A stretch of 64,000 nucleotides of DNA from a bacterium (GTDB lineage Bacteria > Planctomycetota > UBA1135 > UBA2386): contig JANSXC010000003.1 of the NCBI GenBank assembly GCA_024743115.1, forward strand, positions 52,382 through 116,381. Reading direction: 5' to 3'. The position numbers and the translations under genes are program-made. The notes under the pieces are model-generated. The model ran no database searches, was not told the origin of the DNA, and saw only the letters and a list, made by a program, of their open reading frames with translations. This document shows, piece after piece, positions 20,413-26,959 of this stretch (within the stretch, counting starts at the first letter, position 1; each line of letters begins with the position of its first letter).

Positions 20413-21855
20413 ATGACCGCCCCCGCCGCGACCACGACCCCTGGAATCCGCTGGTGGCACGCACTCCTGCTCTTCGCGGGCGCGCTCACCGCGTTCTTGC
20501 TGCTGCCGCAGCGCGGCGTGCACGGCGTCGACGGCAACACGTTCGCGGTCTGGGTCGAAGAGGGCAACACCGGCAACTACGCGCGTCACGCCGCTTACCT
20601 CTGGCTCTGCAGCCAGGTCTACTCGGTGTTCGAGAGCACCGGGATCACGGGTCATCAGGCACTGCTGATCACATCCGCACTCGGCAGCGCAACGGGTGTC
20701 CTGCTGCTGCTGTTCGCCTTCGCGCGACTGCTGCCGCGCGACGTGCCGCCGCTGCTCGGCGCCGCCGCTGCCCTCGCGACGCCGAGTTACTCCTACTTCG
20801 CGACGACAGGGGAGATCGCGGGGGTGCTCGCGGTCGGCGTCGGACTCACGTGGTGGCTGTTCGCGCGCTGGTGTGATCGCTCGACGTTCGCGCGCGTCGC
20901 TCTGCTCGGCATCGGGTGCGGCATCGCGGGCGCGATCCACGCCCTCGGCCACCTGCTCACGCCGGTGTTCGTGCTGACCGCGGCTTTCCTCGAACGCGCG
21001 CCGAAGCACGGACGCTTCCTGCAGCTCACGACGTTGTTCGGCTGCCACGTCGCGACCGCGGTCCTCCTGTCGACGCTGCTCGCCAGGGACGCCGCGGGAC
21101 AGGCGACCGACGCCGCCGACGTGATCGCCGAATACTGGGAAACGTTCGCGCCGCTCACCGCGCCGGCCGTGCTCTGGCGCGAGTGGTTCCTGCCGTTCCT
21201 GCCGTGGTCGGTCGGCGCGCTCGTGGCGCTGCTCAACCCGGTCCCGCGCCGCCTCGCGCTCGCGACCCTCGCGGCGGTGCTGCTCTACCTCGCGCCCAAC
21301 GTCGTGTTCCTCGGCTACTGGCAGATCGATGAACGCGGCGCCTACTTCGGCCCGCTGCTGCCGCTCGCGATCCTCACCGTGGCACACTCCGCGACGTTTC
21401 GGGCGTTCGTGGCCACGGCACTGGCAGGCCTCGTCATCACGGCGGTGGCCCTGGCCCCCGGCTGGCGCAACCCGGTGTCACCCGGTTTCGGCGCGGGCAT
21501 CGCCGAACTCAACGCCGAGCAGAAGATCGTGCTCATCGTCGCCAACCGCGAAGAGATCGCGGGCGCACGTTCGGCCGTTCGCGACCTCGTGCTCATGGAC
21601 ATCGCCGCCATCGTGAGCGCGCATCAACAGCAGCCCGAACCGACGCCGTTCCCGGCCTGGTTCGACACCTACCACGCGCAGATGACCGCGGCTGGGATGA
21701 GGACGATCGTCAGCGCGGCGACCGGCGCTCTCCTGACCACGACCGGACATCCCGGGCTCGCACCGTTTTGGAACGAGCACGTGCCGGCGAAGTACGAGCT
21801 CGTGCCGATCGAGCGGCAGGGCTTCCGCGGCACGCTGCTGCGGCCGCGGAAGTAG
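20413..21855 (+). CDS. polytopic membrane protein (possible GT-C-fold glycan-modifying protein)
   Basis: About 11 hydrophobic segments and a soluble C-terminus; acidic DG after TM1. Function is inferred only. Confidence 0.6.
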   Translation: MTAPAATTTPGIRWWHALLLFAGALTAFLLLPQRGVHGVDGNTFAVWVEEGNTGNYARHAAYLWLCSQVYSVFESTGITGHQALLITSALGSATGVLLLLFAFARLLPRDVPPLLGAAAALATPSYSYFATTGEIAGVLAVGVGLTWWLFARWCDRSTFARVALLGIGCGIAGAIHALGHLLTPVFVLTAAFLERAPKHGRFLQLTTLFGCHVATAVLLSTLLARDAAGQATDAADVIAEYWETFAPLTAPAVLWREWFLPFLPWSVGALVALLNPVPRRLALATLAAVLLYLAPNVVFLGYWQIDERGAYFGPLLPLAILTVAHSATFRAFVATALAGLVITAVALAPGWRNPVSPGFGAGIAELNAEQKIVLIVANREEIAGARSAVRDLVLMDIAAIVSAHQQQPEPTPFPAWFDTYHAQMTAAGMRTIVSAATGALLTTTGHPGLAPFWNEHVPAKYELVPIERQGFRGTLLRPRK

Positions 21856-21891
21856 GGCGCGCTCACCGGCCGCGTCGGCTATCGGCCGCGG

Positions 21892-23973
21892 CTATCGCGG
21901 GCGCCCGGCTTCATCGAGCGCGAAGCCGAGGAAGTCGAGCCAGCCCGCCGTCCACTCGGTGGCGGCGCCGCTCAACGTGTGCTCCGCGACCGACTCGCCC
22001 GTCTTCGGATCGACGACGACGTAGAATGGCAGCGTGAGCGTCCCTTCGCCGATCTCGTCGCGCGCCTTCTGGTTGGCGGCCCACTGGGCATCGGTAAGGT
22101 AGCTCTGCGAGTCGACGTGCAGACGGGCTTCGACGAAGTGCTTTTTCATGAGATCGGCGACCGCCGGATCTCGGAAGACAGTGCCTTCCATGCCACGGCA
22201 ACTGCCTCAATTGAAGCCCGTGAAGTTGTAGATCAGCAGCTTGTCGTCGGCCTGTGCGACCTGCACCGCCTGCATCGGGTCGTCCTTGACGATCGTGTGG
22301 CCCTTGGCCTTGGCGGTGCCGCCGCCACTCCCACCGCCGCCCTCGGCCAGCGGACCGACGTATTCGGCGTGGTAGGGCGGGATGAAGGTCGTGGTCAGGA
22401 AGTCCATGCGCTGACCACCGGCACCCTGGAACAGGTAGACGGCGAACAGCGTGACGAACATGCCGATGGCCTGGCGCGAGGCGCTGACGCCGGCATAGGA
22501 CTCGCCCTTCTTGGGCAGGAAGCCGAACAGGAACAGCGCCCAGAACAGCAGGATCGTCGCGGTCAGCGCGAGGTAGAGCTCGCGGTTCAAGAACTGCCAG
22601 CCGAGCGCAATGTCGACGACCGAGATGAACTTCAGCGCCGCGGCGAGCTCGACGAAGCCGAGTGACACCTTGAGCGTGTTCATCCATTCGCCCGACTTCG
22701 GCATCGCCTTCACCTTGGTCGGCAGCAGCGCGAGCGTGACGAACGGGATCGCCATCGTGAGGCCGAAGATCGCCATGCCGAAGCCAACACGGAACGAGCC
22801 GTATTGCGCCGTGCTCGCGAGCAGCGTGCCGACGATCGGCGCCGTGCAGGTGAACGATGTGATCACGAGCACCGCACCCATGAAGAACACGCCCGCAAGG
22901 CCGCCGGCGCGACCTGCGCCTCCCGCGGCGTTCTGCAGGAAACGCGGCGGCTGCAGGTTGATCCAGCCGAACAGCGCGAACGCGAAGATCACGAAAAACG
23001 CGCCAATGATCAGGTTGGTCGCCCAGTGGTTCACGAACGGCTGGATGACCTGCGCGGCGAGCACGCCGACCACGACGAAGATCGTGATGATGCCCGCGCC
23101 GTAGGTCAGCGCGAGCGGCAGCACGTTGCCGCCACGCGCCTCGGCCTGCTTGGTGAAGAACGAGAACGTGATCGGGATCATCGGGTAGGTGCACGGCATC
23201 GCGAGCGCGAACAGCCCGCCACCGATGCACGCGAGGATCAAGGCCCACCACGAATCGAACGGGCCGCCCGGCTTACCGGTCGCGGCTTCGTTACCTTCGG
23301 CCTCGCCAGCCGGTGCGGTGCCGACACCGCCGCCTTCACCGTTGCCGGCTGCACCGGCGCCTTCACCGTTGCCGGCTGCACCGGCGCCTTCACCCTGCTC
23401 GCCGGTTTCACCCTCACCACCCGACCCGGCACTCGGTGCGTCCGCGTACTCGGCCCGGACGTCACCCGCCTCGATCGTGAGCTTGCCGGAGAACGCGGCC
23501 TCGGCTGGCGCCTTGCACGAGGTCTCGTCGCAGACCTGGTAGTCGAACGTGCCCGACACCTCGGCTTCGCCAGCCGCCATTCCGACAGGCACCTTCACGA
23601 CCTGCGTCACCTCGAAGTACTCGGGCAACGGATAGCTCAGCATCCCGAGCGTTTCCTTCTCGTCACCCGGTGGGATCTCGGGCTCGCCGACCGGCTCGAG
23701 GCCACCGAACTCGATGTTCTCGTGCGACAGACTGACGGGAACGTTCGTGGTCTCGAGGAAACCGTAGGCGTGCCAGCCCGGCGTCGTCGTCGCCTCGAGG
23801 ATCAGCTTGACGTGCTCGCCGGCACGTGCGGTCGCCGGCTCGAACCGAACCGCGAGAACCAGGTCCTCGGACTCGAGCTGCAGCCCGGGTTTGAGCTGGC
23901 CCTGGGCGAGGGCAGGCATGAGCAGGGCCAACAGCAGACCCGGCATCAGGAGCATGCGAAGCGTCGTATTCAT
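21892..23973 (-). CDS. dsbD: thiol:disulfide interchange protein DsbD, probable selenoprotein (in-frame TGA at 22207-22209, UxxC)
   Basis: Signal peptide; alpha domain YQVCDETSC; TM domain MPCTYPMIPIT and SFTCTAPIVG; MPKSGEWMN; thioredoxin domain YNFTGFN-TGA-GSCRGME continues in frame to TAG 21892-21894 (693 aa total). Confidence 0.9.
22150..22172 (-). promoter_or_regulatory. candidate bacterial SECIS hairpin
   Basis: mRNA GAGAUC-C-GGC-GGUC-GCC-GAUCUC: 6-bp stem, bulged pyrimidine, 3-bp stem and GGUC loop, 35-57 nt after the UGA. Confidence 0.55.
23331..23394. repeat. 27-bp tandem repeat (about 2.4 copies) encoding the GEGAGAAGN linker of DsbD
   Basis: CGCCTTCACCGTTGCCGGCTGCACCGG x2 plus CGCCTTCACC. 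Confidence 0.9.
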
Positions 23974-24080
23974 GTGGCGCGGGGATGATACGAAGCCACT
24001 GCGTCAGGTTGCGCAGAACTTCGAGCCGCGCCGGTTTCCGCGCCCCAGCCGGCCGGCCGCGGCCGCCACCCGCACGGGCG

Positions 24081-26915
24081 CTACTTGCCCGCGCGAAGGT
24101 GGATTCGCGTGATTGCGGCCGTCGCGGCCGCCGCGACCTCGGCGTCCTTCTCCGCACTCCAATCGATCAGGAACGGGAGTGCCTCAGGCGCGCCGAGCAC
24201 GCCGAGCGACTTGATCGCGAGCAACCGCTGCTTCTTCGGATGCCCCGGCTTGCTCTGCAGCAGCAGCTTCTCGGCGGCCGATGCCGGCGAGGCATCGAGC
24301 CCCTTGAGAACGCGATCCCAGTGCGCCTGTTGTTCGTGGTAGAAGCGGATCCGCGTGAGAGACTCGGCGGCGACCGTGCGCACGCCCGGCCCCTCGTCGC
24401 GCAGCAAGGCGATGAGTTGCGGCACCGCGCGCTTGCTCACGATCTGCCCGAAGAACTGCGCCGCTTCGTGCCGCACCCCAGTGTCGGTATCGCCAAGCAA
24501 CGGCAGGATCACCGACTCGGCTTTGGCACCGAGCGCCGTCGCCCCCTCGATCGCGGCGCGGCGCGCGCCGGCTGCCGGGTTGCGAACCAAACGCTCGAGC
24601 AGATCCTTGGTGATGCGATCTTCCGAACGGACCAACAATCGCGCTGCCTGCTTCGCGATCTGAGCCGAGGGCGAATCCAGCAGGGCCTCGATCGCCGCTC
24701 GGAACGGCTCGATGTGCGAGATCGACAACTGGTGGATCAATCGATGGCACGGCCGCGAGTCGGACTCCCGGAGCACGCCAGCGATCCACGAGGTGAACAC
24801 GCGCTTTTGGGGCGAGTCAGGCTCGGCTACCGCCCAGCGCTCGAGCGCGGAACTCACCCAAGCAGCCTCCGTCGCCTTCATGTCGTCGATCGCGAGTGCC
24901 CGCGATGCGAGCGCGATGAAGTTGCGGTCCGGGATCAGATCGAGCGAGTAGGCGTTCGTGAAGAGCGCACTCCCGAACCCGAACTCCGTCACCTTCACGA
25001 TGGCCTGCTCGACCCGTTCCGGGGTGTAGCCGTGCGGTGGGTAGTCGGAGCTGGGGCCATACAAGAGATATTGGATCGGCGTGATCGAGGGTACGCGCTC
25101 GGTTTCGGCATACGGATGCCTCACCGAACCGTGCGACATGTTCGGACGAATCAAGTCCAGCGCCTCGATGTCACCCATCGCCATGAGCGCGAGCAACGGT
25201 CGCGGATTGCGGCTACGCGCGGACTCGGATGCGATCCCACGCAGTGCGCGACGCACGCTCTCCGAACGATCATGACGCCCGAGTTCGACGAGCGCGCGAG
25301 CAGCCCAGTCCTTCTTCGGCTGCTTCTGCCACATCGTGAAGATCCAGTCTGGGGCCTCCGGATGGCCGGTCAGAGCCATCGGCCAGGCATAGGCCGAGGA
25401 TCCGGGAACCTCTTCACGGTTCGCCGCGGCCCGCTCACGCAGCACGGGGAAGACCTCGCGCGGCAGCGATTTCGCACCGGCCAGGATGTCGAGAATCCCG
25501 TAGATGCGATGCTTTGAACCGCTCACCAGCTTCGCGATCGCCACCGCGTTCTCGTCGGTCACGCGTCCTCGCAGCGGCTCCCATGCGCTGGCTCCCCGAT
25601 TGATCCAGTCGATCACCTGCGCCTCACAACCGGGGCCGTGATCCACGGCGATCACGGTCGCCATCTGACTCAGCCAACGCTCACGCTGCGGCGAGATCTC
25701 CGCGTCAAAGCGCCCCATGCGCTGCACGCACGCGTCAACCGCGGGAACCAGACGGCGGGCCTCCTCGGCGGTGAAACGACCGAACTTGAGGTCCGGGGTC
25801 TGCAGCCCGAACGAAGTCGGCACCGTCAACAGGTTCGCCAGCAGCAGCTCGACCCCGGCCGTCGACTGCTGCGAGGTCCTGGTCGTGAGGAACTGGAGCG
25901 CCGCGCTGGCAAGCTCGGGGTTGGTGCTCTGCAGGATCCGCCGCACGCGCTCGTGCAGCGCCGCGAGCGGCCCACTCGACAACGTCCGGGGGTTTCTGGC
26001 CCACGAGAACACGGCCAGCAGCGCCGAGGGCGGCCCTTCGAGCGCCGCGTTGACGATGCGATCCGGATCGAGGCGGTCGCCGAGACTCTTCCCGCGTTGC
26101 GGCTTGCTGGTCAGAACCGCGCGATTGACCGCGGCATCCGCGCTCGCATCGGCGAGATAGCGCGTGGCCAGCGCGACCATCGGCTCGCTCTCGGCCTGAA
26201 ACGCCGACAGCGCCACGCATTGCCGGAAGAACTCGTTCTCCACGCTGACACCGGCAGCGAGGTAGTCCGCGGCGGACTGCCCTCCCACGCGCCACAGAAA
26301 CCCGGCCAACCCGGCAACGTAGCAACCGAACGCAGATGCGAGCGGCGAACGATCACTGACGGTCGTGGTCTCTTGCTTTTGCAAGCGCGCAATGACCTCC
26401 GGCACGGCGGCCTCGCCGATCCAGAGGAGTTGCCGCGCGAGTTCGGGGTCTTCGATACCGGGCAACGGACCATGCCACGTGGGGGCCTTGAAGTGCCACA
26501 TCTGCTCCAACAGCTTCCGCGCCCGCACGCGCAGCTGCTTCTGCCGTTCGACGTCCTGCTTCGCGCCCCCCGCGGCGTCGACGTCGACGAGCTTGGAGTT
26601 CACGGCCGCCTGCAGGAACGGTGCCGCGTCGCCCTTGCGCCCGAGCCGCTGCAACAGGAGCCCGAGCCGCAGATTGGTATACGCCCGATCCGCGGCCGAG
26701 ATCCCGTCTGTGGCGAGCGCCGACCGATAGAGCTTCTCGGCACGCGCCAGGTCGCCCTCCTGCTCCTCGACGGCGACGGCGGCGGCCACCTGGGCGCCGA
26801 GCTGTGCCTTGGGGGCGCTGGGAGCCGCCGGCGTGGCCTTCTGGCCTTGGGGAAGCGCGGGCGACGCGAGCTGGAGCGCGGCGAACGCGAACACGACTGC
26901 GGTGGTGTTTCTCAT
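24081..26915 (-). CDS. large secreted TPR/HEAT-repeat protein
   Basis: Signal peptide; EEQEGDLARAEKLY (TPR-like); C-terminal HEAT repeats LLGDTDTGVRHEAAQFFGQ, LLRDEGPGVRTVAAESL. Confidence 0.8.
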   Translation of the reverse strand: MRNTTAVVFAFAALQLASPALPQGQKATPAAPSAPKAQLGAQVAAAVAVEEQEGDLARAEKLYRSALATDGISAADRAYTNLRLGLLLQRLGRKGDAAPFLQAAVNSKLVDVDAAGGAKQDVERQKQLRVRARKLLEQMWHFKAPTWHGPLPGIEDPELARQLLWIGEAAVPEVIARLQKQETTTVSDRSPLASAFGCYVAGLAGFLWRVGGQSAADYLAAGVSVENEFFRQCVALSAFQAESEPMVALATRYLADASADAAVNRAVLTSKPQRGKSLGDRLDPDRIVNAALEGPPSALLAVFSWARNPRTLSSGPLAALHERVRRILQSTNPELASAALQFLTTRTSQQSTAGVELLLANLLTVPTSFGLQTPDLKFGRFTAEEARRLVPAVDACVQRMGRFDAEISPQRERWLSQMATVIAVDHGPGCEAQVIDWINRGASAWEPLRGRVTDENAVAIAKLVSGSKHRIYGILDILAGAKSLPREVFPVLRERAAANREEVPGSSAYAWPMALTGHPEAPDWIFTMWQKQPKKDWAARALVELGRHDRSESVRRALRGIASESARSRNPRPLLALMAMGDIEALDLIRPNMSHGSVRHPYAETERVPSITPIQYLLYGPSSDYPPHGYTPERVEQAIVKVTEFGFGSALFTNAYSLDLIPDRNFIALASRALAIDDMKATEAAWVSSALERWAVAEPDSPQKRVFTSWIAGVLRESDSRPCHRLIHQLSISHIEPFRAAIEALLDSPSAQIAKQAARLLVRSEDRITKDLLERLVRNPAAGARRAAIEGATALGAKAESVILPLLGDTDTGVRHEAAQFFGQIVSKRAVPQLIALLRDEGPGVRTVAAESLTRIRFYHEQQAHWDRVLKGLDASPASAAEKLLLQSKPGHPKKQRLLAIKSLGVLGAPEALPFLIDWSAEKDAEVAAAATAAITRIHLRAGK

Positions 26916-26959
26916 GATGATCAAGAGACCCGTTCTTCGGCGTGCTCCGGTCCGTGCGC

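Follow-up and report, generated by a model that had tools for sequence, protein, structure and literature searches.

A predicted selenocysteine-containing DsbD from the Planctomycetota, encoded across an in-frame TGA codon

In Escherichia coli, the membrane protein DsbD relays electrons from thioredoxin to its β domain, from there to the γ and then to the α domain, and finally to periplasmic client proteins. Here, we analyzed a DsbD-type gene located on the minus strand (21892..23973) of a 64,000-nucleotide stretch of DNA from a bacterium of the Planctomycetota lineage UBA2386 (GenBank assembly GCA_024743115.1, contig JANSXC010000003.1, positions 52,382 to 116,381 of the forward strand; hereafter the window, within which positions are counted). 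Like the DsbD proteins of E. coli and Neisseria, the encoded protein is arranged in the order of an α β-sandwich, a DsbD_TM domain and a γ domain of thioredoxin fold, with two Cys residues in α, two in β and a two-residue redox motif in γ. It differs from them in that the first residue of the γ motif is specified by TGA (selenocysteine, Sec or U) and not by a Cys codon, that its α motif is C-x4-C, and that α and β are joined by a long Gly/Glu-rich linker; many of its relatives further differ from these proteins in having two to four α-type motifs. Our analysis indicates that the gene very probably encodes a genuine selenocysteine-decoded DsbD, for which Sec insertion at the TGA codon is predicted.

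Selenoproteins with a comparable active site have been described. In the passages of the literature that we compared (PMC13188914, PMC1794560, PMC4807772, PMC2398784, PMC9312934, PMC1976440 and PMC1088965), a UxxC selenoprotein family named ‘Thiol:disulfide interchange protein’, with a domain identifier of the DsbD-γ type, has been catalogued since 2004-2008; the earlier tables list three proteins from Deltaproteobacteria, and reviews give the family as PF13098 with one Geobacter representative. A 2026 review (PMC13188914) counts 119 prokaryotic selenoprotein families, among which the compared passages name no DsbD entry other than TsoB, a rhodanese/DsbD fusion with a UxxxxU motif. Moreover, S9 Table of PMC4807772 lists candidate selenoproteins of Planctomycetes and may already include the present gene family. 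TsoB resembles the window protein in combining a DsbD-type membrane domain with a thioredoxin-like C-terminus; as far as the compared passages describe it, however, TsoB has a rhodanese domain and two Sec residues in UxxxxU, whereas the window protein has an α domain and a single Sec in UxxC, and no Pfam match to a rhodanese domain was found in it. The catalogued UxxC family shares with the window protein the UxxC motif in a thioredoxin-like domain, but it is described in those passages by table rows only, which give neither architecture nor membrane context and name no Planctomycetota. PF13098 is not among the Pfam matches of the window protein at E ≤0.01, and it is precomputed for the Cys-form relatives P0003, P0010 and P0011. 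Compared by description only, the catalogued family and the family of the window gene are likely identical. We take cd02953 to be the DsbD-γ family, and ‘thiol:disulfide interchange protein’ is presumably the COG name of DsbD. Sec in a domain of the DsbD-γ type has most probably been catalogued already, and the novelty implied by a preceding reading of the window made from its letters and open reading frames (hereafter the sequence-only reading) was overstated, since a UxxC family of this name was already in published catalogues.

The gene comprises 693 codons, running from an ATG at 23971-23973 to a TAG stop codon at 21892-21894 on the minus strand, on which all of its features lie. In the list of minus-strand open reading frames (ORFs), it appears as a 588-aa ORF (22207..23973) and a 99-aa ORF (21892..22191). 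The sequence-only reading held these to be one frame split by a single TGA at 22207-22209, which is borne out both by the letters at the junction (TTC AAT TGA GGC AGT TGC CGT GGC ATG GAA, with the TGA at 22209-22207) and by translation: when TGA is read as U, 21892-23973 forms one 693-residue frame whose sole stop under genetic code table 11, before the terminal TAG, is U589. The predicted Sec codon, residue 589 (22207..22209), is thus defined by the letters, the frame and the aligned codons of relatives, and lies in the motif ...YNFTGFN-U-GSCRGMEGTVF..., in which the TGC at 22198..22200 encodes C592, the resolving Cys of UxxC, which is invariant in a 40-sequence alignment (there C48). Four sequencing runs were compared with the window as Logan contigs rather than raw reads, 40 rows of differences being listed and 106 more unlisted. 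The contigs of run X1, possibly the source run, cover 21892-23360 with 0 differences, and a contig of run X3, from another study and about 95% alike, spans 21892-23193 with no change at 22207-22209 among the 40 listed rows.

To place this codon among relatives, 30 loci from related genomes were combined with the best 80 of 331 loci found in public contigs, almost all of which are titled Planctomycetota. The resulting 110 loci, drawn from two fetches that overlap and with the window's own locus among them, contain 87 distinct 78-nt stretches (75 Sec forms and 12 Cys forms) and 95 distinct proteins (83 Sec and 12 Cys). In 40 related genomes, the best match reaches the γ domain in 33, of which 27 have one in-frame TGA and 6 have none. 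Among the 30 fetched loci, the codon at the first active-site position is a stop in 27 and a Cys codon in 3. A phmmer alignment likewise places U589 on the first Cys of the CxxC motif of the solved structure 3f9u (E 3.8e-6), in agreement with the earlier claim that the TGA occupies the position of the first Cys of the DsbD-γ CxxC. Over the 110 loci, the codon aligned to U589 is TGA in 96, TGC in 13 and TGT in 1; the TGA/Cys alternation among orthologues, proposed as a check on the Sec reading, is therefore found exactly at this codon. A quick tree of the 95 β-γ sequences was built after masking the Sec/Cys column; two changes are required to explain the Cys label on it, as the Cys rows form an 11-row clade and the single row L126, both among Sec rows. 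Sec is the majority state in this sample, and the tree, rooted at its midpoint for drawing only, gives no direction of change from Sec to Cys or from Cys to Sec. Contigs titled Luminiphilus sp. (Pseudomonadota), Candidatus Paceibacteria and Candidatus Kuenenia also carry a gene of the Planctomycetota type (L080, L124, L086 and others); because these oddly titled public contigs of metagenome-assembled genomes are placed inside Planctomycetota clades on the tree, they look like binning or labelling errors.

The part of the gene after the TGA is conserved. The frame remains open for 84-112 codons in 94 of the 95 distinct genes, the exception being L047 with 53 codons. In the 40-sequence γ alignment, the residues C48, R49, E52, E71, H75, D77 and P105, all after U, are invariant, and P105 sits at what we take to be the position of the conserved cis-proline of thioredoxin folds. 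These invariant residues, together with a confidently modelled thioredoxin fold and matches to DsbD γ domains (see below), uphold the claim that the downstream domain shows no decay. Besides its short frame after the TGA, L047 (genome G016) lacks the second β-domain Cys motif, and the match in L032 (genome G005) carries a TAG as well as the TGA; each may reflect either gene decay or faulty assembly.

The genome also encodes the machinery for Sec insertion. In the window's own assembly (53 contigs, 90% complete), tRNA-Sec scored 76.6 bits (cut-off 47) and was called tRNA-SeC(tca) by ARAGORN, and selA (448 bits), selB (339 bits) and selD (363 bits) were all found, so that every component named for checking in the sequence-only reading is present above its curated cut-off. 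The selD gene itself encodes a selenoprotein, with a TGA at GSG-U-AAK, and lies directly after selA (C19:19464-20493(+), L018). Among the 59 tRNAs called by ARAGORN, only tRNA-Sec has the anticodon tca; UGA-to-Cys recoding, which had been offered as an alternative, finds no second UCA-anticodon tRNA to carry it. TGA closes 1225 of the 1951 open frames of at least 600 codons and is the commonest stop codon, indicating that it is a normal stop in this genome. Furthermore, selA exceeds its cut-off in 41 of 41 related genomes, which is consistent with Sec decoding but does not discriminate it from other readings. Taken together, the machinery, the lone UCA-anticodon tRNA, the TGA/Cys alternation and the conserved downstream domain support Sec at the UGA of this DsbD-type gene.

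The architecture of the 693-residue protein was examined with Pfam, NCBIfam, AlphaFold and Foldseek. A hydrophobic, signal-like N-terminal segment (residues 1-25; 23899..23973), seen in the sequence and modelled as a helix at residues 3-23, precedes an α domain (residues 48-158; 23500..23832), identified as a DsbD_N-like β-sandwich from Pfam PF11412, the model and Foldseek. Its Cys pair, CDETSC, consists of C148 (23530-23532) and C153 (23515-23517), both invariant in 41 sequences, and Foldseek matched the domain to the DsbD N-terminal domains 6dnv, 6dps, 1jzd_C, 1l6p and 1jpe (probability 1.00, E ~3e-3, template modelling (TM) score 0.44-0.60). The β membrane domain (residues 242-451; 22621..23250) matches DsbD_TM (PF02683) with 82.5 bits against a cut-off of 27.1, with helices continuing to about residue 530. 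Its two Cys residues, C261 in MPC (23191-23193) and C376 in FTC (22846-22848), are invariant in the 41 sequences, and their motifs are present in 95 and 94, respectively, of the 95 distinct orthologues. The full-length model (41 sequences; mean predicted local distance difference test (pLDDT) score 80.4) contains a β-sandwich at 38-168 with strand pLDDT mostly >90, a helical membrane block at 242-530 and a thioredoxin domain at 559-688. This model, the α-structure matches and the invariant C148, C153, C261 and C376 uphold the three-domain DsbD reading; the architecture expected of a three-domain membrane electron conduit is supported by Pfam and the model, and the remaining catalytic Cys residues, described earlier as intact, are indeed all present, as is C592.

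Between α and β lies a low-complexity linker rich in Gly, Glu and Ala (about residues 170-238; 23260..23466), which is disordered in the model (pLDDT <50 at residues 183-236), varies between strains and contains a short peptide unit as a direct repeat. In strains about 95% alike, other letters stand in its place (23307-23413 in the X3 contig and 23307-23444 in an X4 contig), which marks it as a fast-changing spacer. The α-type C-x(n)-C motifs before the membrane domain also vary in number, being one in 14 distinct orthologues, two in 56, three in 5 and four in 2; a further 18 fit no α-motif pattern, and some complete genes among them carry a different N-terminal domain. The window protein has one such motif, compared with two in its same-genus relatives.

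The γ domain (residues 560-688; 21910..22296), with its U589-x-x-C592 motif, was assigned a thioredoxin fold from PF13899, AlphaFold and Foldseek. PF13899 (Thioredoxin_7) matches residues 568-656 with 27.6 bits (cut-off 27), and the Pfam family Thioredox_DsbH matches residues 568-626 with 21.8 bits, under its cut-off of 27. An AlphaFold model of residues 545-693, based on 40 aligned orthologues, shows thioredoxin topology with a mean pLDDT of 92.4. Its best Foldseek match is 3f9u (E 4.9e-9, TM score 0.70-0.72), followed by DsbH, the E. coli DsbD γ structures 1vrs_D, 2fwf, 2fwe and 1uc7, and also 6dnu. 3f9u, the C-terminal domain of an exported cytochrome c biogenesis-related protein of Bacteroides fragilis, is thus the closest solved structure by both sequence and fold; it shares a motif of the FTGxxCxxCRxME type, but it has Cys at both active-site positions and represents an isolated domain only. 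In NCBIfam, the full protein gave only sub-threshold matches, the best being TsoB NF045694 with 106.4 bits (cut-off 805), and the γ domain alone matched TsoB, a Trx7/PDZ (seleno)protein, DsbH and DsbD, all far under their cut-offs. These data indicate that the protein belongs to a distant DsbD subfamily and is not an equivalog of the E. coli type.

Immediately downstream of the UGA, two adjacent RNA hairpins recur in single-sequence folds of the 75 Sec forms (positions counted from the U of UGA as +1). Hairpin 1 (HP1; +21..+37; 22173..22189) lies over the codons M-E-G-T-V-F and has a free energy of -7.3 kcal/mol when folded alone. Hairpin 2 (HP2; +38..+60; 22150..22172; -11.6 kcal/mol alone) is the candidate SelB-binding part of a selenocysteine insertion sequence (SECIS), and has a stem of six pairs followed, past a bulged C, by three more, closed by a GGTC (GGUC in RNA) loop at +48..+51 (22159-22162). 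Of the 75 Sec forms, 59 have a GGUC-loop hairpin of at least 4 bp, positioned precisely at +48 in 58 cases; none of the 12 Cys forms has one. The Cys forms were likewise devoid of HP1 with 5-6 of its 6 pairs (65/75 Sec, 0/12 Cys) and of HP2 with 5-6 of 6 pairs (48/75 Sec, 0/12 Cys); the loop letters are GGTC in 63/75 Sec and 0/12 Cys forms, GATC standing in 9/12 of the latter. Across the Sec forms, 86.1% of cells are paired, compared to 78.8% in shuffles, and 60 are double-change cells, compared to 18.2, with 0 of 500 shuffles as high in either count, although both counts are favoured in that the tested structure was derived from the same sequences by single-sequence folds. Covariation, which supports both hairpins, scores 0.253, whereas shuffles score 0.140 and slid partners no more than 0.160; changes on both sides are seen in five of the six HP2 pairs. 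In some loci pairing persists despite substitutions in the protein (A to E, A to S), pointing to constraint at the RNA level. A long alternative stem, in which the xxC-R codons pair with the P-A-V codons in many minimum free energy (MFE) folds, was rejected as a conserved structure because, where the 5′ arm of HP2 changes, the compensating change lies in its 3′ arm rather than in the upstream segment.

The published model of the bacterial SECIS, as given in the passages compared, has a loop of 3-9 nt with G within its first two positions and a stem of 4-16 bp, lies 16-37 nt from the UGA and has an MFE of ≤-7.5. HP2 fits this model in loop, stem and energy (MFE ≤-7.5 in 60/75) but not in distance, lying 44 nt from the UGA. 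An Rfam scan of 21800-22400 found no SECIS family and only chance-level matches (E ≥6.5). One clade of seven distinct loci (including L029, L034 and L071) is without HP2 and has a 9-bp HP1 instead. SelB may usually bind HP2, with HP1 serving as a structured spacer that assumes the binding role in this one clade.

Similar hairpins follow TGA codons elsewhere in the genome. Five paralogous secreted-type proteins of the Redoxin/AhpC-TSA families, closest to ResA/TlpA by Pfam and NCBIfam, have a TGA in a W-U-x-x-C motif and signal-like N-termini (L131-L135; C1:466770-467933(+), C12:58955-59464(+), C27:69866-70987(-), C30:93245-94846(+) and C33:38048-39223(-)), and all five genes carry, after the TGA, the same 7-bp GGTC-loop hairpin at +35. 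In addition, a gene for a deiodinase-family protein with EF-hand domains (C11:32343-33953(+), L136), which has a TGA in FGSYT-U-PPF, carries a 6-bp GGTC-loop hairpin at +25. From the genome-wide scan for TGA followed by a GGTC-loop hairpin, only these six matches, with recognizable thioredoxin-fold or deiodinase motifs, were kept. The GGTC-loop hairpin shared within the genome supports the loop of HP2.

Several observations weigh against a selenocysteine-decoded DsbD with a hairpin-directed UGA. For the protein, PF11412 scores 22.2 bits over residues 48-158, under its cut-off of 25, and the NCBIfam DsbD model PRK00293 scores 101.3 bits against a cut-off of 330. The ratio of nonsynonymous to synonymous substitution rates (dN/dS) is no lower after the TGA (0.40-0.76) than before it (0.34-0.62); there is no sign of relaxation past the TGA, yet this is not a sharp test, and dN/dS, tried as a separator of the parts before and after the TGA, did not separate them. 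For the RNA, the 75 Sec forms yielded no consensus structure in RNAalifold, so the hairpins had to be named by hand from single-sequence folds; the single-sequence fold itself outdoes shuffled sequences by only a modest margin (z -2.16; 6 of 200 did as well). The GGUC hairpin of at least 4 bp is missing in 16 of the 75 Sec forms, and the hairpin contrast between Sec and Cys forms rests on two Cys lineages only. Moreover, 44 nt separate the UGA from the start of the GGUC-loop hairpin, more than the 16-37 nt of the published model, and HP1, which at 22 nt is within that range, has the loop G in 33/75 and an MFE of ≤-7.5 in only 13/75. In the genome as a whole, the scan for TGA with a GGTC loop gave 68 matches compared to 30-85 for five control loops, and was therefore unenriched; the hairpins downstream of the TGA in selD have no GGUC loop, so that this loop is no universal rule in the genome. 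Finally, the evidence for read-through past the UGA and for selenium in the protein is indirect.

Other explanations of the in-frame TGA were weighed against the same data. The databases carry the 588-aa form, and P0002, P0004 and P0007-P0009 each cover 51% of residues 480-693, as if ending at the TGA, which might suggest a pseudogene, a split gene or an assembly error, with the 99-aa ORF as the decaying remnant of a nonsense change. The same TGA codon, however, stands in 75 distinct related sequences from many genera and is carried by independent assemblies, the residues downstream of it are invariant, and the frame stays open in 94 of 95 genes; within the reach of sequence comparison, this explanation is refuted, and we assign it scarcely any probability. 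Hardly more credible is that UGA589 is read as Cys, Trp or another standard residue through a suppressor tRNA, near-cognate decoding or a change of the code. Cys stands at this position in 14 of the 110 loci and so would be functional there, but the tRNA set offers no UCA anticodon besides that of tRNA-Sec, TGA is the commonest stop in a genome with a full Sec system, and the conserved hairpins, which simple read-through would not need, accompany only the TGA forms.

It is somewhat less improbable, though still unlikely, that the gene has a dual output, with Sec inserted when selenium is available and termination otherwise yielding a 588-residue α-β protein with a regulated role. Termination and Sec insertion compete at the UGA of bacterial selenoprotein genes in general, and because the gene is the only DsbD_TM member above the cut-off in the 90%-complete assembly, loss of γ would matter to the cell. 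Nothing in the sequence, however, points to a function of the truncated form; a protein search of the own genome, with 1 match there, gave no stand-alone γ-like match; we know of no route from β to α in a DsbD without γ; and selection keeps the full-length form, as the Cys lineages show. A selenium-dependent switch acting through the truncated α-β form, as raised in the sequence-only reading, is purely conjectural. We therefore consider that the full-length, Sec-decoded DsbD accounts best for these observations.

For this Sec-decoded DsbD, we propose the following mechanism. UGA codon 589 would be decoded as Sec by the cell's own SelA, SelB, SelD and tRNA-Sec, directed by the coding-sequence hairpins that closely follow it. 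If the protein works as E. coli DsbD does, electrons from cytoplasmic thioredoxin would reduce the β pair C261/C376, which would then reduce the U589-C592 selenenylsulfide of γ; the U589 selenolate would attack the C148-C153 disulfide of α, and α would in turn reduce periplasmic client oxidoreductases. A disulfide-linked α-γ complex, PDB 1vrs, is among the fold matches of the γ model. Because the residue at this position exchanges with the domains on either side, placing Sec there, as the better nucleophile and the better leaving group, would speed two steps. The transfer of electrons from thioredoxin to the periplasm by this protein is predicted from homology; the direction of their flow, the assignment of the SelB-binding hairpin and the identity of the clients are likewise predictions. 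The five Sec-containing ResA/TlpA-like proteins are candidate clients. The one other DsbD_TM match in the genome scores a sub-threshold 20.7 bits; it is a membrane protein of 215 aa whose N-terminal motif is rich in Cys (C50:72546-73034(-), L138) and which probably belongs to a different family from CcdA.

A wider joint reading of these observations is possible but, taken as a whole, doubtful. In it, the whole envelope route of reducing power in this Planctomycetota order would run on selenium, with the Sec-containing DsbD, as sole canonical DsbD/CcdA, feeding several secreted Sec-containing ResA/TlpA-like reductases. The DsbD message would use a SECIS of a class beyond the published model, in which a GGUC hairpin lies 44 nt away next to a small covarying spacer hairpin that takes up the added distance, and selenium would gate cytochrome c maturation and envelope thiol repair, a truncated α-β product arising under limitation. 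The passages compared from the literature cited above contain no description that we could find of the full α-β-γ membrane architecture of a Sec-containing DsbD, of a Sec majority over the Cys form across a Planctomycetota order, of a two-hairpin SECIS outside the model spacing, or of co-occurrence with Sec-containing ResA/TlpA-like proteins. A literature search on DsbD selenoproteins likewise returned no paper on a Sec-containing DsbD.

In the window, the gene is flanked by a gene for a HEAT-repeat protein (24081-26924, minus strand) and one for a 480-aa protein of no Pfam family (20413-21855, plus strand); a histidine-kinase gene, which ends in TGA, is also among the neighbours. None of these neighbours suggests a functional link to the DsbD-type gene, and a scan of 21600-24300 for promoters and terminators returned 0 sites of either kind.

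In summary, the gene very probably encodes a clean, mis-annotated selenoprotein that offers a useful natural contrast between Sec and Cys and has an atypical SECIS, and it is no new kind of system. The truncated database forms P0004 and P0007 carry the source name DsbD, and the Sec form stays below the cut-off of every NCBIfam model; with gene callers ending at the TGA as well, the central envelope reductase of this lineage is likely mis-annotated as truncated or broken. The thiol-disulfide relay of DsbD has been studied thoroughly. The predicted protein would be a natural version of it whose hub residue, in exchange with the β as well as the α domain, carries selenium, and the Cys forms in sister lineages provide a ready-made comparison of Sec with Cys in a multi-step exchange cascade. 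Since the only canonical DsbD/CcdA and five ResA/TlpA-like proteins of this bacterium are predicted to use Sec, its envelope redox upkeep may depend on the supply of selenium.

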